From positions 1-33,798 of the IMG/VR virus record IMGVR_UViG_3300048839_000240: a stretch of DNA of 33,798 nt. One strand, 5' to 3'. The position numbers and the translations under genes were made by a program. The DNA is from a virus. Its lineage: Duplodnaviria; Caudoviricetes. Each line of letters begins with the position of its first letter. The first letter of the stretch is position 1. This document shows positions 1,977 through 29,136 of the stretch, piece by piece. Below the pieces are notes generated by a model. The model did not search any database. It had not been told where the DNA came from and was given only the letters and a program-made list of their open reading frames with translations.

Positions 1977-1999
1977 AAAAACAGGGTTCCAGCCGTTTA
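1972..1999 (+). promoter_or_regulatory. Class-1 element TGTAAAAA-N14-CGTTTA
   Basis: Overlaps the stop of the HD gene; the ATG at 2009 follows 9 nt after CGTTTA. Confidence 0.7.
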
Positions 2000-2008
2000 A
2001 TAGATACC

Positions 2009-2542
2009 ATGAGCGAATTCCAAGAGCGTTTGTCCCGAGTTGCGCAAGCACAGAAGTTGGCCGGACTCGTGTGCCCCGATGATTATCGGATGGTGGATGG
2101 GAAGTATGTTCACGTTCCGAGTGAGCAAGGTGCGATCTGGAAGGTCGCCTATGAGACCCTTCACGATTTGATCGTCTCCTCTCGTCCGACCAAGGTCGTA
2201 CTCCTGATCGGTATCCCCGGATCGGGCAAGTCCACCTGGCTCTCCCAGAACGCCCAGGAAGGCGTTGTCTACTTCGATGCTACCATGACGGGGCGCAAGG
2301 ACCGAAAGCGTTTCCTGGAGGCCGTGCGGGCCTCTAGCAAGGTCGTCGGATACAACGTCCCCGTGGAAGCCGTGTGGTTGGATACGGCCTTCGGCATTTG
2401 TTCCTCGCGGAACGCTGCTCGCCCCGTCGATCGGCGCGTCCCTGACCATGTGATTGAGTCGATGGCGAGCCGCCTTGCGGAGACGCCCCCAGAGGCTCGT
2501 GAAGGCTTTTCCCAAGTCATCCGTGTCAAGACGCGAGACTGA
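2009..2542 (+). CDS. P-loop kinase, polynucleotide-kinase/AAA_33-like
   Basis: Walker A GIPGSGKST, FDAT motif, lid RNAAR...RRVP..VI..M, PPEAREGF C-terminus. Confidence 0.8.
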   Translation: MSEFQERLSRVAQAQKLAGLVCPDDYRMVDGKYVHVPSEQGAIWKVAYETLHDLIVSSRPTKVVLLIGIPGSGKSTWLSQNAQEGVVYFDATMTGRKDRKRFLEAVRASSKVVGYNVPVEAVWLDTAFGICSSRNAARPVDRRVPDHVIESMASRLAETPPEAREGFSQVIRVKTRD

Positions 2543-2576
2543 TCGAAAGATCGCTCTACAAGCCTCCTACGATTTT

Positions 2577-2610
2577 AGGGAGGGTGCTCAACCGGCACCC
2601 TCCCTTCTTC
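2577..2610 (+). terminator. Intrinsic terminator of the accessory-gene block
   Basis: Perfect 11-bp stem AGGGAGGGTGC/GCACCCTCCCT followed by a pyrimidine tail. Confidence 0.7.
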
Positions 2611-2616
2611 ATTGGT

Positions 2617-2786
2617 TCAACCCCCCTCTATCAACCCTTTCTGATCAAGCTGGTCTTATCAACCCCTTCGAGAGATCAAGACTTCCTACGTTTTTTCTCT
2701 CAACTCCCTTTGTTCTCAACCCAAGAGATCAAGTCTCTCTGTCTCGTTTTCTTTCAACCCTTTCTGTCTGATTTCTCTTCAATCCC
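2617..2786 (+). repeat. TCAACCC / GATCAAG short-repeat cluster
   Basis: TCAACCC at 2617, 2631, 2659, 2716, 2754 (variants at 2700, 2779); GATCAAG at 2643, 2674, 2727; TCAACCCTTTCTG exact at 2631 and 2754. Confidence 0.75.
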
Positions 2787-2838
2787 ATTCTCTCACACTG
2801 ACCTAATTAACTTCCCTATCCCTTGGGTATAGTTACTT

Positions 2839-3068
2839 GCTGCTTTGACTCAATTTCTTAATTGAGTTAGTTCTCTCAAGGAGACTCTAGGCAACTAGAA
2901 GAGAGACAAGATAGCACTATCGGAAATCTTGGATTGAATAATCAGGTTGACCTAAATCACTACTCCTAGTCTCTGGTCAACAACAATCAAGAATCACAAA
3001 GAAGTGTTATGCTGAGTAATCAGTGGTGTTAGTCGAAACAAACCCAAAGCAGCCTTGAAGGCTTTTTT
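2839..3068 (+). ncRNA. Candidate multibranched structured ncRNA (~230 nt)
   Basis: Closing helix GCTGCTTTG (2839-47)/CAAAGCAGC (3045-53); at least 6 nested internal stems; GCAA and GTAA tetraloops; upstream promoter-like motif; 3' hairpin with T-tract. Confidence 0.55.
3051..3068 (+). terminator. Short intrinsic terminator-like hairpin
   Basis: AGCCT-tga-AGGCT followed by TTTTT. Confidence 0.5.
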
Positions 3069-3225
3069 CATAAGACAAGTCAGTCCCACTCTTCCCAGAA
3101 GGATTTTCAAGATGATCAAGATGATTTTCAAATCTTTGGACTCCAAGTCTACTTGGTCACTATATACTCTAACCTTCTTTTCTCTTTCATCTTCCTACTT
3201 ACCTCTCAGTCTGATTACTGATGTC

Positions 3226-3505
3226 AAGTATCTAGATGGATCTAAGTATCTAACTCTGAATTAAGAGTTAAAGAGAATTAAGAACTAACTAGAGTAGTTG
3301 TCTTATTCACACCAACACAACAACCAATACTTATTCTACTACTTCTACAAATACTTCTCACTCTACTACTACTGATACTTATTCTACTACTCTGAATACT
3401 AATACTTATCATTCTACTACTGATACTTCTACTACTAGTACAGATACAACAGACAGACACACTCGACAGAATACTTAATTACCCAAATACCCCCGGAGGG
3501 GTATT
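3226..3505. repeat. ATACTT/CTACT iteron-like repeats; candidate replication origin
   Basis: ATACTT at 3327, 3351, 3375, 3402, 3423, 3471; inverted AAGTAT at 3226 and 3244; AT-rich and G-poor on +; AATACCCC/GGGGTATT hairpin at 3486-3505. Confidence 0.6.
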
Positions 3506-3514
3506 GAAACTCGA

Positions 3515-3543
3515 TAAATACACTATCAGTATGTCTTTAATAG
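3515..3543 (+). promoter_or_regulatory. Class-2 motif TAA-N6-TAT-N14-TAG
   Basis: Identical spacing at 10170, 29735 and 33074, each directly upstream of a start codon. Confidence 0.65.
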
Positions 3544-3547
3544 AGAC

Positions 3548-3958
3548 ATGCCTGGGATAGCTCAGAGAAGATTTGGTAGGGGGATGAATTTGACTCCTAC
3601 TGAAGCAAGAGATAAATTAGCAGTACCCGTCTTGTACATACTGCTTGGAATAGCTGTACCTATTTATCGAGGAACGAATAGAGGAAGTAGTTCTACGTTA
3701 GTAGACATACGTCCTACAGTTGGAGTACCGGAATATTTGACATCCGTTACTGTTCCAGGATTTCCTGTGACAGTAAATGGAGTTCAATGGGATAAGGCTG
3801 TCTATCCAGTCTTGATCGATCCAAGATGGAATCCAGCAAACAAACCGAACTTCCTTCTCTTGTTGAAGGGAAATGCTCCAGAGTTAGTGAAGATTATTGG
3901 GACAGAGTTAGCCTTGAAATTTCATCAAGCAGGTTATGGTCCTCTACCATTGGATTGA
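3548..3958 (+). CDS. Hypothetical protein (136 aa)
   Basis: ORF directly after a class-2 motif; no recognisable family. Confidence 0.7.
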   Translation: MPGIAQRRFGRGMNLTPTEARDKLAVPVLYILLGIAVPIYRGTNRGSSSTLVDIRPTVGVPEYLTSVTVPGFPVTVNGVQWDKAVYPVLIDPRWNPANKPNFLLLLKGNAPELVKIIGTELALKFHQAGYGPLPLD

Positions 3959-3960
3959 AA

Positions 3961-4170
3961 ATGCCAAGTAACAAAGAACCACCAAAAAAGAAGAACCCTC
4001 CAGGGTTTGAGTTCCCGGAGAATGAGACGGTATGGATGGCTTGTAGAGGAGGGAATTCTTGTCCCTCGAATAAATGCAAGGTTGAGTTCAAACAGAAACT
4101 CCCTACAGGGAGTACCTATATTCGGTACACTTGTCTCCTCTGTAAGAAAATGTTCGGAATCACAATCTGA
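3961..4170 (+). CDS. Small Zn-ribbon-like protein (69 aa)
   Basis: MPSNKEPP...CRGGNSC...CLLC; the ATG lies 2 nt after the upstream stop. Confidence 0.7.
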   Translation: MPSNKEPPKKKNPPGFEFPENETVWMACRGGNSCPSNKCKVEFKQKLPTGSTYIRYTCLLCKKMFGITI

Positions 4171-4190
4171 TTTGGAGTATAGAGAGGGTT

Positions 4191-4802
4191 GTGAGAGAAA
4201 AACCCTCGTATACGATGGCGATGTTATTTCATGGACCAATGGCTCGGGAGCGTGCGCTTCGGAAAGCGCGAGAGCTTGGAGCCTTGGTCCATGAACCCTT
4301 CGGTGAGGAGGGATTGAAAATTGATGATTCTAGAGAGATCGTGGAGTTGATGTCTACCGTCTCTGTTGGGGACAAGGTTGGAACCTTGGTGATCGGTCCC
4401 TTGGACCAAGCACGACAAGCCGCTACGGATGCGTTGCTAAAATCCTTGGAGGAGTTCAACCCGGAGATCATCTGTCCCGTTCTTTGGGCGAACGATGCAG
4501 GGGATGTGAGTCAGACGATTCGTTCCCGCTGTAGAGAGGTTTTCTGCCCTGGCAGCATCCAACTAGAGGACGAGGACTTGGAACGCGCTAGGGAGCTTGT
4601 AGAGGCTTCCATACGAAGGGACCGGGCGACGGTCATAGAGTTGTGGAAGGAGATGGGAGAACAGAAACTCATTCCGGCTCTGACCAAGGTATTGTCATCA
4701 TCCCTGGACAGCAAACGAACCCTTGCCTTGTGGGAGAAAATCCGTCCCGCTTTGCAACACCATGAACCAACCAAAAATGAGATTCTAGCGGCCCTCCTAT
4801 GA
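4191..4802 (+). CDS. holB: DNA Pol III delta-prime-like clamp-loader subunit
   Basis: LKIDDSREI, ATDALLKSLEE and TIRSRC (SRC motif); no intact Walker A; adjacent to a holA-like gene. The start may be 4191 or 4215. Confidence 0.75.
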   Translation: MREKPSYTMAMLFHGPMARERALRKARELGALVHEPFGEEGLKIDDSREIVELMSTVSVGDKVGTLVIGPLDQARQAATDALLKSLEEFNPEIICPVLWANDAGDVSQTIRSRCREVFCPGSIQLEDEDLERARELVEASIRRDRATVIELWKEMGEQKLIPALTKVLSSSLDSKRTLALWEKIRPALQHHEPTKNEILAALL

Positions 4803-5866: not shown

Positions 5867-8800
5867 ATGACGAAAACAGCGTTAGAGAAAGCTAATTATT
5901 CAACCTCCGTGTTGTACACCTATGACCAAGCCTACAAGGCGTCTCTTGAGTATTTCAGGGGGGATGCTTTGGCGGCGAATGTCTTTGTGACCAAGTATGC
6001 GTTGCAGGACGGTAACAATGGGTTTTTGGAACTAACTCCAGATGACATGCACCAGCGATTGGCGAGGGAATTTGCTCGGATTGAGCAGAAGTATCCTAAC
6101 CCGATGAGTTATGAGGAGATCTACAACCTGTTCAAGAACTACGATGAGGTAGTGGCACAGGGGTCTCCTCAATCCGCGATTGGGAACCCTTTCAAGGTGC
6201 AAAGCACCTCCAACTGTTTTTTAGTGGCCCCACCACACGACTCTTATTCTGGTATCTTGATGACAGACCAAGAACAGGTTCAAATCATGAAACGTCGTGG
6301 TGGCGTAGGATTTGACATCTCTACTCTTCGACCTAAAGGGATGGCTACGGCTAATGCAGCAGGCACGACGGATGGGATTGAGATCTTCATGGATCGGTTT
6401 TCCAATTCGTGTCGAGAGGTCGCACAATGTTTGGCAGAAGGGACTTTAGTTCTAACACGTAATGGATTGCAACCAATCGAAGATATTTCTCCAGGTTCAT
6501 TAGTGTGGACAGCCAATGGTTGGGTTCCTGTACAAAAAGTTCTCAAGAACAGGAAACTTGTCCATAAAATGGTTACCCATAATGGGTATGAGATTTATGC
6601 TTCTGAGGACCATGTTTTTCACACAATGGAAGGTGAGCTAGCTGTTGGAGAGCTAGGTCCGAACTCCCCTGTTTCCAACATTTTAGGAGAAGGTTGGGAA
6701 GGTTTTTCCATTGAAATGTCTTTACCTAACATGGAAAACAGTGGGAACAGATTAAAGTCCTACTCGCTGCCCACGAAGATGACAACAGAGTTGGCCTATT
6801 TTCTAGGCCAACTCTATGGGGATGGTTCTATTAGTGTTGTCCCTAGAGTAACTACATCCAATCATGAATTGTCGGTTGCGTTGTCTAACGATTGGCCAAC
6901 AGTAATTGACAAGATTAGAAATTGTGTGGAGACCACGTTTGTTGGCATTACTGCGAAAATTGAGCCGGGGGACGGTGATTGTCAGAGACTTCGAATCAGT
7001 TCCGAACAGATTGTTCAGTACTTGAAAGTCAATGGGTTCTTTAAGGTCAAGTCCCAGGACATCACATTCCCAACTCAGTTTTTGTCCGCCGATAAAGCAT
7101 TGTTAGCAGCATTTATTGGTGGGTATTTCGATGCGGACGGTTATGCGTCTGGTGCGAAGAAGGGTTACACATTTTCATCAACATCGAGGGATTTCCTTCA
7201 GACACTTAAAGTTGTTTTGGCGGCACACGGGATTACGTCTTCTTGGCATCGCGAAGATCGTAGTGCGAAAGGGTGGAGAGACCTCTACAGTCTTTCCGTT
7301 GTTGGGGCGTCTAGTCAAAGACGGTTCATTGAACTCTTGAATGGTGAAAGTGAGAAAGTAAAAGAGAAGAATTTTGTTGCGAAACGTGATTGCACTCTGT
7401 CTATTTTTAGAAGTGCAGACTTAGGGGTGTCTTACAACAAATTCTCTTTTTGCCCAGACAACTCTCATTTATTGTCACGCAACACAGTGGATAGACTACG
7501 TGTTGAGGGTGTTTTACTACCTGAAGACAGTTCACGACTTGTTTTTGATAGAGTCTCTTCGATTACGGTGGCACAAGAGGAAAACACCTATGATCTTGTA
7601 CTAGACGACGTTCACTTGTTTTTTGCTAATGGTCTGTATGCACATAACTGTGGTCGGCGTGGAGCTTTGATGTTGACGTTAAGTGTTCACCACCCGCAGG
7701 TTCGTGACTTCATCAACATCAAGAAGAACAGAACACGAGTCACCGGGGCGAACATTTCTCTACGCCTTTCAGACGAGTTCATGCGTGCAGTAGATGCCGG
7801 AGAAGACTATCGGCTTCGCTGGCCGGTTGACTCTAAGGAGCCTGTTGTTAGCGAGATGGTTTCTGCCAGAGAGATCTGGGACTTGATCAATCAGGCAGCA
7901 TGGGAGTCAGCGGAACCAGGGTTGCTTTTCTGGGATACCGCGAAAAACATGACTCCCTCGGACATCTACTCGGACTATGGTTTTGCATCTACATCAACCA
8001 ATCCGTGTATTGTAGGCGACACCCTGATTGCAGTAGCAGATGGTAGAAATGCTGTTTCTATTCGTCAGTTGGTGGAGGAGGGTAAAGACGTTCCTGTGTA
8101 CTCCACTAACATAGAAACAGGTAAAGTGGAGATTAAATGGGGACGTAACCCACGCCTCACTAAGAAAAACGCCGAAGTTTGGAAGTTGATTCTTGATGAT
8201 GGGAGCTATCTTATTGCCACCCCGGACCACAAGATTATGAAGTCAGACTGCTCCTATGTAGAGCTTAAGGATTTACAGTCTGGAGAGTCCGTGTTTCCGT
8301 TCTATACCTTTGACTCTAATGGGTATCGACAGGTGAGAAACACTGGTGAGAACTTCGTACATCAGGTGGTGAATAATCACAAGGTAGTAAGTGTAGAGAA
8401 ATATGGTGTAGAGGATGTCTATAACATCACAGTTGATGACAACCATAACTACCATGTAGTCACTTCTACTGAGGACGACAAATACATCACCTCTTCAGGT
8501 TTGTGCGTTAAAAACTGCGGGGAAATCGTTCTGTCAAATTACGACTCTTGTCGTCTTATGGTGCTCAATGTAACTACTTTTGTTGAGCACCCCTTCACCC
8601 CCAAGGCCAAGTTTAATTTCAAGCGATACGTAGATTCCGTCATCAAAGCACAAAGACTCATGGATGACATGATTGACCTTGAGCTAGAACAGGTGGACAA
8701 GATTCTAGCCAAGATCGAAGTAGACCCGGAGCCCGACTACGTAAAAGAAATCGAGCGGAGCCTGTGGTTGAAGATCCGACAGGCGGCGGTCAATGGTCGT

Positions 8801-10165
8801 CGTACAGGTTTGGGTATTACCGGGTTAGGTGATGCTGTAGCCATGATGAACTTGGTCTATGGTAAGGACGGGTCGTTTGAGTTCGTAGAGGATGCCTACA
8901 AGCACTTGGCAATTGGGTCTCACACAAGTTCCATCATCATGGCCAAGGAACGTGGTGCCTTCCCTGTGTTTAATTACGATTTGGAGAAGGACCATGTGTA
9001 CATGAAGCGCATTATTGATGCACTTCCAGAGGACATTCAGAAGCTCTACAAGAAGCATGGCCGTAGAAACATCGCCAACACGACAACAGCCCCCTGTGGT
9101 TCAATTTCCACACAGACTCAAACAACATCGGGCATTGAGCCCGCGTACTTGATTCACTACACGAGACGAAAGAAAATCAATCCCAGTGAGGCGGATGCCA
9201 AGGTGGATTTCGTGGATGAATTAGGAGACAAATGGCAGCATTTCCATGTTCTCCATCACGGTTTTGAGCAGTGGTGCGTAGCAACGGGTCGAGACCCCAA
9301 GGTTGTTGCTCAGGCGTTGTATGAGGGGGATACCTCAGCTTTGAAGGCAAGCCCCTACTATGAGGCGACCAGTAATGACATTTCCTGGGTCAATAAAGTT
9401 CGCATCCAGGGTCTTGCTCAAAAATGGATTGACCATGCGATCAGCAACACGACGAACTTGCCCAAGGATGTCACTGTGGATGTTGTGAAGCAGGTGTACA
9501 TGGAGGGGTGGAAGTCCGGTTGCAAGGGAGTCACGGTATATCGTGACGGATGCCGTGATGGTGTTCTAGTCAGCGACACGAGCACGCCCAAGGCTGAAGA
9601 TAAGGGGTTCGAGGAGCATGATGCTCCCCGTAGGCCCTTGGAGTTGGACTGTGAGGTTCACAGAACCCGAGTTCGTCATGGGGACGATTATGTAGACTGG
9701 ACGATTTTCGTCGGTCTATTGGACGGAAAACCCTACGAGATTTTCGGGGGGATGAGTGAGTTCATCGAGTTGTCCAACAAGATTGAATCTGGTTGGATCG
9801 TCAAGAGAACCCTCAAGTCAAGTGCCCGTTATGACTTCCACTACGGAGATAAGGATGAACCCTCCGTAATTCGGGACATCGTAAAGACCTTCGACAATCC
9901 TAACCACGGGGTTTTCACCCGGATGTTGAGTTTGAGTTTGCGGCATGGAGCGGCTGTGCATCATGTGATTGAGCAGCTTCAGAGGGACAAGGACAGCGAC
10001 CTTTTCAGCTTCAGTAAGGTCATGGCCCGTGTCTTGAAGAAATACGTCAAGGATGGCACCAAGTCCAGCATCCGTACCTGTCCCGATTGTGGTTCCGAGG
10101 GAACCTTGGTCTACCAGGAGGGTTGTGTGACCTGTACCGCTTGTGGTAGCTCCAAATGCGGGTGA
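5867..10165 (+). CDS. nrdJ: Class II (adenosylcobalamin-dependent) ribonucleotide reductase with two inteins (~855 aa after splicing)
   Basis: SNCF, RRGGVG, GRRGALM, TNP|CGE, GRRTGLG, TTAPCGS, SGIEP, KGVTVYRDG; C-terminal TSCPD-like domain and CPDC..CTAC Zn ribbon; no R2 gene in the window. Confidence 0.92.
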   Translation: MTKTALEKANYSTSVLYTYDQAYKASLEYFRGDALAANVFVTKYALQDGNNGFLELTPDDMHQRLAREFARIEQKYPNPMSYEEIYNLFKNYDEVVAQGSPQSAIGNPFKVQSTSNCFLVAPPHDSYSGILMTDQEQVQIMKRRGGVGFDISTLRPKGMATANAAGTTDGIEIFMDRFSNSCREVAQCLAEGTLVLTRNGLQPIEDISPGSLVWTANGWVPVQKVLKNRKLVHKMVTHNGYEIYASEDHVFHTMEGELAVGELGPNSPVSNILGEGWEGFSIEMSLPNMENSGNRLKSYSLPTKMTTELAYFLGQLYGDGSISVVPRVTTSNHELSVALSNDWPTVIDKIRNCVETTFVGITAKIEPGDGDCQRLRISSEQIVQYLKVNGFFKVKSQDITFPTQFLSADKALLAAFIGGYFDADGYASGAKKGYTFSSTSRDFLQTLKVVLAAHGITSSWHREDRSAKGWRDLYSLSVVGASSQRRFIELLNGESEKVKEKNFVAKRDCTLSIFRSADLGVSYNKFSFCPDNSHLLSRNTVDRLRVEGVLLPEDSSRLVFDRVSSITVAQEENTYDLVLDDVHLFFANGLYAHNCGRRGALMLTLSVHHPQVRDFINIKKNRTRVTGANISLRLSDEFMRAVDAGEDYRLRWPVDSKEPVVSEMVSAREIWDLINQAAWESAEPGLLFWDTAKNMTPSDIYSDYGFASTSTNPCIVGDTLIAVADGRNAVSIRQLVEEGKDVPVYSTNIETGKVEIKWGRNPRLTKKNAEVWKLILDDGSYLIATPDHKIMKSDCSYVELKDLQSGESVFPFYTFDSNGYRQVRNTGENFVHQVVNNHKVVSVEKYGVEDVYNITVDDNHNYHVVTSTEDDKYITSSGLCVKNCGEIVLSNYDSCRLMVLNVTTFVEHPFTPKAKFNFKRYVDSVIKAQRLMDDMIDLELEQVDKILAKIEVDPEPDYVKEIERSLWLKIRQAAVNGRRTGLGITGLGDAVAMMNLVYGKDGSFEFVEDAYKHLAIGSHTSSIIMAKERGAFPVFNYDLEKDHVYMKRIIDALPEDIQKLYKKHGRRNIANTTTAPCGSISTQTQTTSGIEPAYLIHYTRRKKINPSEADAKVDFVDELGDKWQHFHVLHHGFEQWCVATGRDPKVVAQALYEGDTSALKASPYYEATSNDISWVNKVRIQGLAQKWIDHAISNTTNLPKDVTVDVVKQVYMEGWKSGCKGVTVYRDGCRDGVLVSDTSTPKAEDKGFEEHDAPRRPLELDCEVHRTRVRHGDDYVDWTIFVGLLDGKPYEIFGGMSEFIELSNKIESGWIVKRTLKSSARYDFHYGDKDEPSVIRDIVKTFDNPNHGVFTRMLSLSLRHGAAVHHVIEQLQRDKDSDLFSFSKVMARVLKKYVKDGTKSSIRTCPDCGSEGTLVYQEGCVTCTACGSSKCG
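6428..7648 (+). mobile_element. Intein with LAGLIDADG homing endonuclease (407 aa)
   Basis: Starts CLAEGTLV and ends YAHN before Cys; LAGLIDADG blocks LAYFLGQLYGDGS and FIGGYFDADG; block F TYDLVL. Confidence 0.92.
8006..8515 (+). mobile_element. Mini-intein (170 aa) at the NP|CGE catalytic Cys
   Basis: Starts CIVGDTLI, block B ATPDHKI, block F VYNITVDDNHNY, ends CVKN before CGE; no endonuclease domain. Confidence 0.9.
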
Positions 10166-19794: not shown

Positions 19795-20961
19795 ATGCAC
19801 TTCGACATTGACCAGCACACGATTTTCTTGGGGTTGTCCGGTTCCCATGCGTATGGGATGGCTCGACCTACGTCGGACGTGGACGTTCGAGGTGTGTGTG
19901 TCCCACCGGATACGGTGCGTCGGTCGTTTTGGAAGACTTTCGAGCAGTATCAAACCATGAACCAGGAAGGTTCATGGGGTCCACGCTCCACCGAGGCGAT
20001 GCACAAGATTTTCGTGCATCCTACGGCTGGCCCTTCCTACGAGGTTCACCGGAAGCTCGATCTGACGATTTTCGACATCACGAAGTATGTTCGTTTGGCT
20101 GCTGATGCCAACCCCAACGTGCTTGAGTTGATTTTCCTCGACCAGCGTGACGTTCTCCAGTCTACAGACGAATGGGATTTGCTCCGCGCAAACCGTGACC
20201 TTTTCTTGAGCAAGAAGGTCAAGTATACGTACACCGGGTACGCGCACTCGCAACTCCAGCGTATTGAGTCTCATCGTAAGTGGTTGCTCAATCCCCCCAA
20301 GCAAGAGCCCACTCGTGCGGACTTCGGACTACCAGAGTCGTCCCTAATCCCCTCGAATGTTCGGGACCAGATTGAGGAGACTGTCCAGTTGATGATTCGT
20401 CAATGGCTGTCCGAGGACAACTTGGAGTTGAGCGGGGCAGCACAGGACGTGCTACGGATGCGTATTCAGGATTTCTATGCCGCTTCGATGGGCGTCGATG
20501 TCAAGGATCTACAGGAGTCGATGTACCTTGTGGCGGCTACGACACTTGGAATTACGGATGACGTGCTCCATGTTGTCAAGCAGGAGAAGCGATACCGTAG
20601 CGCCCGTCAAAACTGGCAGAAATACCAGACGTGGAAGCGTGAACGAAACGAGGCTCGTAGTGAGCTAGAAGCCAAGCATGGATTCGACACTAAGCACGCT
20701 AGTCACCTAATTCGACTGATGCGCACGGGGTTGGAAATTTTGCAGGGGAAGGGGCTGCAAGTGAAGCGCCCTGATGCCGAGGAATTGATGTCTATTCGTG
20801 ACGGCGCTTGGTCCTATGAGCATCTAATGGAGCAGGCAAAAATGCTGGAGGATCAGATTTCCGAGGCGTACAAGACGAGCGTATTGCCTAATTCCCCAGA
20901 CCGTGAGAAAATCGATCAGGTGCTCATGAACGCCATCGAAATGGCGTATAAGCATGGATGA
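19795..20961 (+). CDS. Pol-beta-fold nucleotidyltransferase, RlaP/YcgL-like (PF10127-like)
   Basis: GSHAYG...SDVDVRGV, NPNVLE, GYAHSQL, DTKHASHLIRL, LPNSPD. Confidence 0.85.
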   Translation: MHFDIDQHTIFLGLSGSHAYGMARPTSDVDVRGVCVPPDTVRRSFWKTFEQYQTMNQEGSWGPRSTEAMHKIFVHPTAGPSYEVHRKLDLTIFDITKYVRLAADANPNVLELIFLDQRDVLQSTDEWDLLRANRDLFLSKKVKYTYTGYAHSQLQRIESHRKWLLNPPKQEPTRADFGLPESSLIPSNVRDQIEETVQLMIRQWLSEDNLELSGAAQDVLRMRIQDFYAASMGVDVKDLQESMYLVAATTLGITDDVLHVVKQEKRYRSARQNWQKYQTWKRERNEARSELEAKHGFDTKHASHLIRLMRTGLEILQGKGLQVKRPDAEELMSIRDGAWSYEHLMEQAKMLEDQISEAYKTSVLPNSPDREKIDQVLMNAIEMAYKHG

Positions 20962-25460: not shown

Positions 25461-25983
25461 CAACTCGATTGCCGAATTGGTCAACCTGAACCACCTGATC
25501 AAAAACAAGCAGGTTCCTCTCCTCATGGAGTTTGAGGTAAACCCGGATTTAGCCCCCTTCTTGGTGAGTTCCCCCAAGGGCCTGATATGGATCGAGAAAG
25601 CCGGAGAAAACAGTCAAGTCCGGGCGGCTCCTACAAAAATGAGTTATCTTCAGAGGAACCTGCTATTGGACCTTCTGGAGAAGTCTATTGAGGAACGGTG
25701 GGGAAATGTGTTCCCTATGTCAGAGGAAGGCGTAAAAGCCTGCCTCGAACATCTCAATGAATTTGGGGAGATTGAGATTTTAGCTCATCCGAAACAGGAC
25801 ACTTTTGGACAAGAAGTTGTTCAGGTTTCTTGGGTTCCCAAGGGATGCCTTGTATTCGTTCCAAAGGAACGAGGGTACCTTGGAAGCATTGGGGTATTCA
25901 GAACGGGTGAGAAGGTTGTGTTGATCCACAATCCTAGACTTGGGGTTGCAATCGCCTATGACAATGCAACAGTGGTTGAGTGA
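25447..25983 (+). CDS. Hypothetical protein (~178 aa)
   Basis: GGAG upstream of ATG 25447; overlaps both neighbours. Confidence 0.75.
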   Translation: MTEPNNSIAELVNLNHLIKNKQVPLLMEFEVNPDLAPFLVSSPKGLIWIEKAGENSQVRAAPTKMSYLQRNLLLDLLEKSIEERWGNVFPMSEEGVKACLEHLNEFGEIEILAHPKQDTFGQEVVQVSWVPKGCLVFVPKERGYLGSIGVFRTGEKVVLIHNPRLGVAIAYDNATVVE

Positions 25984-26641
25984 AGCCTTTCGTGACTCTT
26001 ATTTGAGCGAGGAGGCTCGGGACTACCTTTTGGCTCGTGGGGCTTTGTCGAACACGATTGAGGAGATGGGGGTGGTAACTTTTGTCCCTCCTGTGTCAGA
26101 GTGTCCTAGCCCCGAGTTCGCTACTAAGTTCGGGAAGCACTTCGAGTTTTTTGAGGGAAAACTCATGTTTCCGATTTACAGTCCTCTGGGAGCCCTCATT
26201 GGTTTCGACTCCCGAAGCGTTGAGGCCAAGGATTTGATCCGTTTCCACTTGAAGGAAGCCTCCTGGAATCCCGTGTTTCATGGGATGCCCAAAGCGATGC
26301 ACCGGATCTGGAAGGGGGCGGACATTTGGATTGTCGAGGGGGTGTTCGATTTGTTCGCCCTGGAACATATCCTCCCTGACTGTGCTATTATCGGGGTTGG
26401 ACCAGCGCACTTGAACTTTAAACACTTGGAGTTCCTACGAAGGTGGAAAAACCATGTCAACCTTTGCTTGGACCAAGATGATGCGGGTCGGAGAGGGATG
26501 AAGAAAGCCTTCGAGGATCTACAAAGATGGAAGATCTCGTGTAGAATGGTCGCGTATGGTAAGACCGGGGATGATCCCGGTGCAATTTGGACTCGCGGAG
26601 GCGTAAAGAGCTTGCAAGAGTCATTCAAACTCTACTTGTGA
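25958..26641 (+). CDS. dnaG: DnaG-like primase core (Toprim), no Zn-binding domain
   Basis: YL..RG, LMFPI...G.LIGF..R, IVEGVFD, LCLDQDDAG, DDP. Confidence 0.82.
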   Translation: MTMQQWLSEAFRDSYLSEEARDYLLARGALSNTIEEMGVVTFVPPVSECPSPEFATKFGKHFEFFEGKLMFPIYSPLGALIGFDSRSVEAKDLIRFHLKEASWNPVFHGMPKAMHRIWKGADIWIVEGVFDLFALEHILPDCAIIGVGPAHLNFKHLEFLRRWKNHVNLCLDQDDAGRRGMKKAFEDLQRWKISCRMVAYGKTGDDPGAIWTRGGVKSLQESFKLYL

Positions 26642-27194: not shown

Positions 27195-28616
27195 TTGAGC
27201 CTTGACGACAAATACCGTCCTAGAGCGTACAGTGATGTACTAGGGCAGAAATCGACCATTTCTGTTCTAAAGGAGTTGGTCAAAAAGCGTCAAGGCTTTC
27301 GGCAAAGCTATGTCTTTGCTGGACAGTTTGGCTCTGGCAAAACTACCCAAGCACGTATTTTTGCCAGAGCCCTACTGTGCGAATCCCCTGTGGATGGGGA
27401 GGCATGTGACAAATGCCCCTCCTGTTTGACTATGCTTGATCCCATGAGAACCCACGAAGATTTCGTGGAGGTGGATGCGGCGAATCACTCCAAAAAGGAG
27501 GACATCGCCCAAATCGTGGAGGATATCAAGTACGGCTCCTTTTCTGGCAGACAACGGCTCTACCTTTTTGACGAGAGCCATGAGTTGTCCAAGTCAGCGA
27601 TGGATGCCCTTCTACTTCCCCTGGAGAATACTCGCCCTGGTACCGAGGATAAACAGCTAGTCTGTATTTTCTGTACTACGGAGCCCTCGAAAATGCGGGG
27701 TGCTATTCTTTCTCGTTGCGCTCCTGTGTTCAAGATTGAGGTGATGCCTCCAGACGCTATTGCAGACTATCTGGCGATGATTTGCGATAAAGAGGGGTTC
27801 GAGTATGAACCCCAGGCGTTGAAGATTATTGCCGAGTCTACCGAGTGTCACATTCGTGACTGTCTGAAAGCCCTAGAGGGGATCTCTACTGTTGGCAAGG
27901 TGGACGTGACCAATGTTACGACCTACCTCCAAATGGACGCTAATCCGTTGTTCCTCGACGTGTTAGATAACATCGGAGGCGACTTTGCGAAGGTTCTTGA
28001 TGCCTGTCAGCAATTGTCCATGAAGGTGTCTCCCGCAACGGCTTATGAGAGCCTGGCAGAGTTGTCCATGTTGGCGTACCGCACGGTCCATGCTCCAGGC
28101 GTGGCAATCCCATCTTTCTGGGATTCCGCTAGGATCAAGCAAGTGGGGACCAAGCACTCTGAATTCTTAATTCAGTTCGCACAGGTGTTTGGGTCACGCC
28201 CCGCACACTCGAACCACTCGATGCTTTTGTGCGACATTTCTTCGCTGCACCAAAAAAGAACGGGGTTGGTGGTTCAGGCGACTTCAACCCAAGTCGTAAA
28301 TCTACCCGTACAACAGGCACAAGGCCCTGAAATCGGGCATAGTCAACTTAAACAGATTGACTTGTCGAATTCTGCGCCGATCGCGGATCAAAAACCAAGT
28401 AACTATGGTAATATGGAACCAGTAGTCACAGCACTTGGGGTCTATGTAGACCCAAGAGCCCAAGGTTTAAACTCACATGTTCCAACGATCGGAAATTCGA
28501 AAGTACCTGCTTTGTCCTCGAACGAATTCGCTGATATTCTGCACCGTAGGGTTGTGGAGTTGACGGAGGAAAACCGTGGCGGATCGTCGAGACGGAATAA
28601 CGTGGGTAGCTCTTGA
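27195..28616 (+). CDS. dnaX: DNA polymerase III gamma/tau clamp-loader ATPase
   Basis: KYRP..YSDVLGQ, GQFGSGKTT.ARI, four-Cys Zn cluster, EVDAA, FDESH, ILSRC, IRD; TTG start. Confidence 0.9.
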   Translation: MSLDDKYRPRAYSDVLGQKSTISVLKELVKKRQGFRQSYVFAGQFGSGKTTQARIFARALLCESPVDGEACDKCPSCLTMLDPMRTHEDFVEVDAANHSKKEDIAQIVEDIKYGSFSGRQRLYLFDESHELSKSAMDALLLPLENTRPGTEDKQLVCIFCTTEPSKMRGAILSRCAPVFKIEVMPPDAIADYLAMICDKEGFEYEPQALKIIAESTECHIRDCLKALEGISTVGKVDVTNVTTYLQMDANPLFLDVLDNIGGDFAKVLDACQQLSMKVSPATAYESLAELSMLAYRTVHAPGVAIPSFWDSARIKQVGTKHSEFLIQFAQVFGSRPAHSNHSMLLCDISSLHQKRTGLVVQATSTQVVNLPVQQAQGPEIGHSQLKQIDLSNSAPIADQKPSNYGNMEPVVTALGVYVDPRAQGLNSHVPTIGNSKVPALSSNEFADILHRRVVELTEENRGGSSRRNNVGSS

Positions 28617-29136
28617 ACTCACTCGACCCGGTGAAAGACTGGTCGAGGAGGGTTTATTTGAAAGCGAAATAAGACGGGTTCTAGGTGTAGATGACACCTG
28701 GCCCGTCTTTGTCCCATCTAAAATCTACGAAAAGAGAGGCAAAAAAGTAGCCGTCCATCTCATGGAGGGGTATGCTTTTGTTGGAACGGGCTTGGATGAA
28801 GTCCGTTATTTTCGTTTAGAGGGGTCGAAGTACATTGAAAAGGTTATGGCTCAAGTAGGTGTAAGGAATATGCGGGTTCTGTCCGTTATTCCTGATGCCC
28901 ACATACGTGAGTTAAAAAAGCAATTGGCTCAGGAGGTGTCCACGGATATTGTGCCTGGGATGGTAGTCAAGGTGACCGAGGGGGTGTATGCGAAACTCGA
29001 AGGGGAGGTCAAGGATGTGGAGGGCGATCATGCGGTCGTCCATTTTGTGCTTCGTTCGTTAGAGGTATTGGCGAAGATACCCAAAGTGTTTTTAGATACG
29101 AATTGGAGCGAAGATGATGAAGTCGTCGTGGAGTGA
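28576..29136 (+). CDS. nusG: NusG/RfaH-family transcription factor (NGN + KOW)
   Basis: W.AL, VFVP, LMEGYAFV; KOW motif PGMVVKVTEGVYAKLEGEV; GGAGG SD before GTG. Confidence 0.85.
   Translation: MADRRDGITWVALELTRPGERLVEEGLFESEIRRVLGVDDTWPVFVPSKIYEKRGKKVAVHLMEGYAFVGTGLDEVRYFRLEGSKYIEKVMAQVGVRNMRVLSVIPDAHIRELKKQLAQEVSTDIVPGMVVKVTEGVYAKLEGEVKDVEGDHAVVHFVLRSLEVLAKIPKVFLDTNWSEDDEVVVE

Follow-up and report, generated by a model that had tools for sequence, protein, structure and literature searches.

A family of structured RNAs, very probably real and apparently undescribed, was found at the head of the DNA-replication genes of giant phages, and the stretch at 2839-3068 of the window (the whole stretch of DNA that was analysed, 33,798 nucleotides) quite probably belongs to it. 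Judged from sequence, positions 2839-3053 likely correspond to the first domain of a ~470-base RNA, in a copy that has drifted towards AT. A preliminary description of this DNA had proposed an undescribed structured phage RNA here, and this central claim is supported by covariation among homologs, by the lack of any Rfam match and by strong conservation between close strains.

The window represents a 33.8-kb piece of a large phage, and its annotated replication and repair genes all lie on the plus strand. Rfam and ARAGORN searches of the whole window gave zero matches. The putative RNA lies in the gap between an AAA_33 kinase gene, which is also found upstream of the RNA in most close homologs, and a gene for a 136-aa protein (Table 1). 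At the end of the kinase gene, a strong G+C hairpin with a T-rich tail (2577-2613) would insulate the gap from upstream transcription. It is followed by pyrimidine-rich TCAACC/GATCAAG repeats (2615-2795), which show many substitutions and indels between close strains and have no counterpart upstream of the promoter in 15 homologs. The motif TTTAATAG occurs directly before the start codons of both gap-flanking genes (1996-2003 and 3536-3543) and nowhere else in the window, and is a possible phage promoter motif. The window also encodes an HD phosphohydrolase, a polynucleotide-kinase-like AAA_33 gene and an RlaP-type nucleotidyltransferase (1356-2542 and 19795-20961), which may constitute an RNA-repair set. 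Other features are a ribonucleotide reductase gene carrying an intein and a LAGLIDADG domain (5867-10165) and two paralogous small glycine-rich genes with an identical N-terminus (66-669).

Protein alignments of the two genes downstream of the gap yielded 43 viral and 25 metagenome loci on contigs of up to 619 kb. A common non-coding element was recognised in the syntenic gap of three viral loci (L004, L008 and L009), and a profile built from these matched 21 of the 25 metagenome loci, including two copies of training sequences; the four unmatched loci have at most 229 bases available upstream. The final alignment, from which seven identical or nearly identical copies and three partial sequences were dropped, comprised 15 sequences and excluded the window. 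In these homologs, the closing helix (P1) of the first domain (domain I) is followed, in this order, by two hairpins, the GAGCGGAACG linker, a long arm with bulges, a GNRA hairpin and a hairpin whose loop is invariant. It has 57 pairs in nine helices, and 95.3% of 852 cells are paired. Double changes were observed at 32 of the 57 pairs, compared with 17.1 in shuffles and 6-12 with slid partners, in controls that remove relatedness only partly and use a structure predicted from the same alignment. Covariation among homologs, named in the preliminary description as a test of the structure, was thus borne out. P1 is 97.8% paired with double changes at four of nine pairs, helices 4-6 have them at 17 of 24 pairs, and helix 8 (100% paired) at two of four. 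The 3′ helices show double changes at 15 of 23 pairs, a count that omits one RNAalifold helix and one isolated pair. The plus strand folded better in 11 of 13 homologs.

Novelty, also claimed earlier, agrees with the Rfam searches, in which neither the window nor the homologous elements matched any family at the gathering threshold or at a loose E-value. No description of the RNA was found in the accessible parts of the literature, including PMC10085705, PMC7162821 and PMC13282480, and motif searches of the available supplements of PMC10690425 (excluding its alignments) and PMC10085705 gave none. PMC10690425 has 10,000 unnamed candidates, and the RNA may be one of them. BLASTN of the gap and of one homolog (L076) against 50,697 phage records returned no match, and a search with the clamp-loader protein found a sole relative, the unannotated LR745208.1. 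Locus searches with single proteins recovered only the twin contig of the window, and DNA-pattern scans recovered known viral contigs and three bacterial-genome matches with little likeness outside the pattern. Among sequencing runs, no RNA run carrying the sequence was listed.

In the window itself, the stems previously listed are all present and compatible with each other, and both GNRA loops were confirmed (GCAA at 2891-94 and GTAA at 3016-19). The same gap contains three further perfect 9-nt inverted pairs and one perfect 10-nt pair. Folding z-scores for 2836-3070 were -2.25 on the plus strand (5 of 200 shuffles equally good) and -1.59 on the minus strand, and those for 2837-3055 were -3.13 and -2.68, respectively (50 shuffles). 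The folding evidence from the window taken alone is modest. Most of the listed stems stood, except for CAAGAT/ATCTTG (2907-31) and GATT/AATC (2932-43), which had pair probabilities of 0.01 and 0.06 and are probably wrong according to the folding model. A competing arm (2927-31/2988-92 and 2933-36/2984-87) matches the homologs and has mean pair probabilities of 0.82 and 0.74, followed by 1.0 and 0.89 for the other helices of the long arm. Its order of helices and bulges is that of homolog helices 4-6, as mapped by eye. The energies of the full structures are nearly equal (-54.8 for the earlier drawing and -52.9 to -54.9 for the family type). The last domain I hairpin offers no covariation because it is invariant in homologs. 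The CGGAA/GAGCGGAACG linker may resemble a T-loop.

Table 1. Features of the window and of the putative RNA. Pair probabilities refer to the window copy.
Feature	Position	Strand	Remark
Clamp-loader subunits, ribonucleotide reductase with intein, RecD2, RecA, SbcCD-like pair			Window gene content
Clamp, primase, NusG-like protein, sigma factor		+	Further gene content
AT-rich gap, ~1-1.1 kb	2543-3547		Between AAA_33 kinase gene and 136-aa gene
-10-like element GGGTATAGT	2825-2833	+	5 nt upstream of closing helix; putative function
Domain I, multiway junction closed by P1 (2839-47/3045-53)	2839-3053	+	Best model (R1) match at 2837-3055
Hairpin P2	2848-2867	+	Probability 0.98; double changes at 6 of 8 pairs in homologs
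Hairpin P3, GCAA loop	2872-2906	+	Probabilities 0.71 and 0.95; aligned by R1; counterpart is a variable arm in homologs
CGGAA	2921-2925	+	By-eye counterpart of near-invariant GAGCGGAACG linker
Long arm (2927-36/2984-92, 2946-52/2975-81, 2959-62/2967-70)	2927-2992	+	Replaces two earlier stems
GNRA hairpin	3011-3024	+	Probability 0.96; counterpart of homolog helix 8
Last domain I hairpin (TGTT/AACA stem), CGAA in loop	3025-3044	+	Weak in window copy, probability 0.33
Terminator-like hairpin and T-tract	3051-3068	+	Peculiar to window lineage
Domain II hairpin ending in TCAAGATGA	3075-3117	+	Helix covaries in 16 homologs
3′ part of conserved block	3118-3311	+	No close-strain difference to 3311
TCTAGATGG	3231-3239	+	Family match by eye
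AT-rich GAATTAAGAGTTAAAGAG	3258-3275	+	Family match by eye
CTACT array, G-poor, fast-changing	3320-3470	+	Five copies of a 27-nt unit
136-aa gene	3548-3958	+	Travels with the RNA
Primase gene	25940-26641	+	Phage's own
NusG-like antiterminator	28576-29136	+	Among ~30 kb of co-oriented genes

A covariance model (R1) built without the window was run unfiltered across the whole window. The top one of 63 matches was at 2837-3055 on the plus strand (15.2 bits, E-value 0.0047; next 9.5), and it aligned P1-P3 only, with 135 nt in the interior left out of the alignment. Taken by itself the score is marginal, because off-target scores elsewhere reach similar bits (13.6 unfiltered, 14.7-17.3 filtered). 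Membership is likely because of the place of the match, which is found within the syntenic gap, has the expected orientation and follows a -10-like hexamer by 5 nt. The arm, the GNRA hairpin and the 3′ motifs also map to the family in order, by eye. The window copy has 39% GC, compared with ~60-66% in the family. The stretch might instead be a decaying or unrelated look-alike of a family that is itself real, given that two training members score 184-215 bits, that AAGGTTGCAC and the -35 box are missing and that the sequence profiles miss its domain I and 3′ part. We consider this quite improbable, since the syntenic gap is exactly where the best model match lies, on the correct strand, the best window match of the domain II profile comes next (3075-3117, E-value 0.074), and the block varies less than its flanks with a sole stem change that preserves pairing.

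The variation was assessed on four contigs of close strains from four studies, each spanning 2706-3343 unbroken. They amount to about one comparison because they are nearly identical to one another. Three of 516 positions (2796-3311) differ from the window with no indel, whereas just upstream of 2796 seven of 90 positions differ and 14 nt are inserted; over 1994-4300, one strain differs at 77 letters and has gaps at 31 positions. The change at 2865 (A>G in P2) converts U-A to U.G, and those at 2983 and 3056 are unpaired and in the terminator loop, respectively. The conserved block reaches 3311, 240 nt beyond the end assigned earlier.

The promoter and terminator formerly attributed to the RNA fared differently in their parts. 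The -10-like element persists, as TATAGT (2828-33) is in register with the -10 of the homologs, and the class-2-like triplets upstream found no support. TTGACA-17/18-TANNNT directly precedes the closing helix in 14 of the 15 homologs; the window copy lacks the TTGACA (-35), as does the homolog L004, and a sigma-70 scan of the window returned three sites, none at the RNA start. A hairpin with a T-tract does exist at 3051-68, but a role as the RNA's own terminator is not supported, the T-tract being found in none of the 15 homologs. The supposed switch between terminator and closing helix also lacks support, the hairpin being unconserved and having a probability of 0.01 at equilibrium, versus 0.82-0.99 for P1. 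A riboswitch or attenuator is likewise not supported, since no conserved terminator competing with the closing helix was found. The size of ~230 nt had to be revised as well: all 16 family sequences covering the part beyond the closing helix continue into AAGGTTGCAC and covarying helices. From this conservation, the RNA likely extends to about 3311, twice the earlier length, for a full size of about 470 nt.

The window's 3′ part was not detected by the 3′ profile of the family. The conserved block ends in TTATTCACA (3303-3311), a 9-mer that is one of three DnaA-box-type matches in the window and is not kept in homologs. The array beyond it has a G content of 6% in the window and 6-13% in seven homologs, and shows indels between strains. 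A hidden protein in the array was rejected, as no frame was conserved in a six-frame check of 19 sequences. A perfect 8-bp hairpin (3486-3505) lies between the array and the 136-aa gene. The 136-aa protein belongs to no Pfam or PHROGs family; its own family comprises 335 clusters at 50% identity, which also include ~400-aa forms. Its confident structural model (pLDDT 85.8) had no match in a fold search (best Z 3.3, rmsd 3.3, 63 aligned), and this lack of matches demonstrates neither a new fold nor a function. One locus (L005, 3566-4750) encodes a fusion in which a member of the 136-aa family carries a long additional domain at its C-terminus (394 aa).

L005 also carries a diverged member of the RNA family (28.4 bits) with the promoter present. 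At farther loci, other conserved non-coding elements occupy the same slot; apart from one group of five sequences, their homology is suggested by position and by eye only. R1 detected none of the farther subfamilies; these blanks carry little weight because the default filters missed even L005 in whole-genome searches. The group of five has a similar fold order, with double changes at 43 of 139 predicted pairs in a count made with no control. A CCTACG..AAGAGG hairpin is common to it and the first group (8 of 8 and 7 of 16, respectively), and across five genomes totalling 2.17 Mb this pattern has three matches that lie outside the element. A GNRA hairpin occurs in 17 of 18 gaps, a count with no chance control that was not taken as evidence. 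The syntenic gap of LR745208.1 (L122, 1730-2300) is non-coding with a repeated stem segment and had no R1 match. In all 31 aligned sequences, the gene that follows the gap is a member of a single family. In five records the 136-aa gene was not next to the clamp-loader gene: three have it at a distance of 10-16 kb, and it is missing from the other two, which are short fragments. In all three rearranged genomes, the RNA-slot element and array remain directly upstream of the 136-aa gene. The RNA family spans giant phages of 36 to 66% GC.

Among the functions proposed for the RNA, that of an origin primer or R-loop RNA acting like ColE1 RNA II has the most, though mixed, support, and we favour it tentatively, as a possibility drawn by analogy. 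Early in infection, the RNA would be transcribed by host RNA polymerase, and its 5′ domains, once folded, would hold the 3′ part on the template as an R-loop. Strand opening would take place at the AT-rich motif and the array, and DNA synthesis would start from the RNA end and proceed the way the RNA is transcribed, with the 136-aa protein as a possible cofactor. Such a role is consistent with the position of the element, which is followed by the AT-rich motif, the strand-biased array and the 136-aa gene. The element is single copy in two genomes (G001 and G003), and its promoter is the sole perfect TTGACA-17-TANNNT in the 619-kb G001 and one of four in G003.

The support from GC-skew is mixed. 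In five genomes, two of which were assigned by synteny only, the distance between the locus and the detrended skew minimum was 0.4 (G004), 6.6, 14 and 20 kb for four, and 178 kb for G001. The G skew at four-fold sites of co-oriented genes rises across the locus in all five, but genes on the opposite strand show the expected shift in only three, and in G001-G004 the raw skew keeps its sign across the locus. The signal is also confounded because the locus heads a block of co-oriented genes. Three DnaA-type boxes are clustered at the head of one syntenic gap (L025, 3088-3139), the only gap with such a cluster. At 478-483 kb of G001, the lowest-GC stretch with repeated ACTACGCGG motifs lies near the sharpest GC-skew switch of that genome and is a candidate rival origin. 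Against an origin primer, the phage encodes its own primase, a G-poor RNA strand disfavours R-loops and the array is G-poor on the RNA strand. A junction this compact, whose loops are invariant, is more reminiscent of an RNA that binds or catalyses.

The RNA may be a trans-acting ornate RNA of the ROOL/GOLLD kind, abundant early and serving as a scaffold alone or with the 136-aa protein; its partners would be tRNAs, ribosomes or a host defence protein. This reading is only slightly less probable than the primer. It explains the compact junction and invariant loops better than a primer does, and it accords with a multiway junction bearing invariant unpaired motifs and a GNRA hairpin, with structure over ~470 nt and with retention of the element beside the protein gene after rearrangement. 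In addition, 36-69 tRNA/tmRNA genes were counted in relatives, the region ahead of the clamp-loader gene in L020 is filled with tRNA genes, and ROOL and GOLLD are often near tRNA islands according to the available part of PMC12286853. It leaves the AT-rich motif, the array and the skew shift unexplained, no conserved terminator was seen at the 3′ end, and ROOL, GOLLD and OLE had no Rfam match in the window or homolog loci at either the gathering threshold or a loose E-value. A broader version of the replication role, in which a clade-wide core RNA gene of 200-600 kb phages adopts a tertiary fold and acts with its dedicated protein, whose fold is unmatched, as an RNP replication initiator, appears rather unlikely.

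A cis-acting leader that modifies RNA polymerase, in the manner of put or EAR antitermination, or attenuates the downstream replication genes is unlikely. The RNA does begin at a promoter and shares its strand with ~30 kb of co-oriented genes including the NusG-like antiterminator, a terminator-like hairpin overlaps P1 in the window, and the C-rich, G-poor array resembles a Rho loading site. However, a leader is weakened because the terminator is not conserved, being missing from all 15 homologs; the arrays are purine-rich on the RNA strand in other subfamilies (L022, L024 and L025), and three genomes have 10-16 kb between the unit and the clamp-loader gene. That the structure works as single-stranded DNA, i.e. 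a folded priming or packaging signal, is highly improbable: both strands fold better than shuffles, but the promoter is conserved at a fixed distance, GNRA loops are present, and one strand shows many G-U exchanges along with three invariant G-U pairs.

Phages are known to encode only a few classes of large structured RNA. The present family is fixed at one place in a giant-phage clade and tied to one protein family, and it gives a defined RNA, promoter and partner as well as a candidate for the replication start of uncultured phages. As stated earlier, the window stretch bears no tRNA or tmRNA hallmarks (ARAGORN 0, Rfam none; G004 has a separate tmRNA) and none of RNase P, SRP or 6S RNA (no Rfam model match). 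Group I/II introns were rejected, with no Rfam match and the element lying between intact genes. Some of its motifs may resemble tetraloop receptors and motifs of RNase P and SRP. The HK022 put and Bacillus EAR antitermination RNAs are promoter-proximal structured RNAs ahead of a long operon. The element is far larger than these, has no Rfam match and is sometimes 10-16 kb from the replication genes. At the origins of phage T4, likewise a large phage with recombination genes, R-loops form where an unwinding region follows a promoter. Those origins have a middle promoter rather than the host-type promoter seen here, and no conserved multi-domain RNA is known among T4 origin transcripts.

A published Rfam scan of half-megabase phages gave tRNAs and tmRNA only, in the accessible part of PMC8172020. 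ROOL and GOLLD are phage-encoded RNAs of several hundred nucleotides with covarying multiway junctions in tRNA-rich genomes (PMC12286853, available part). The homologs of the present element share the large multi-junction structure with covariation, but the element is shorter (~470 nt), fixed at the head of replication genes, and accompanied by a single conserved protein gene as well as an array and an AT-rich motif. ColE1 RNA II is transcribed from a promoter 550 bp upstream of the origin (PMC5043065, available part), and the element resembles it, as described there, in size and layout, with a host-type promoter ~500 nt before a candidate origin and a putative structured non-coding transcript. 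An antisense RNA I gave no Rfam match, and no opposite-strand promoter of the TTGACR type, the only type scanned, was found inside the element. Unlike ColE1 RNA II, the candidate primer would act in 230-620 kb phages that encode their own primase, and it is built around a compact, covarying junction.
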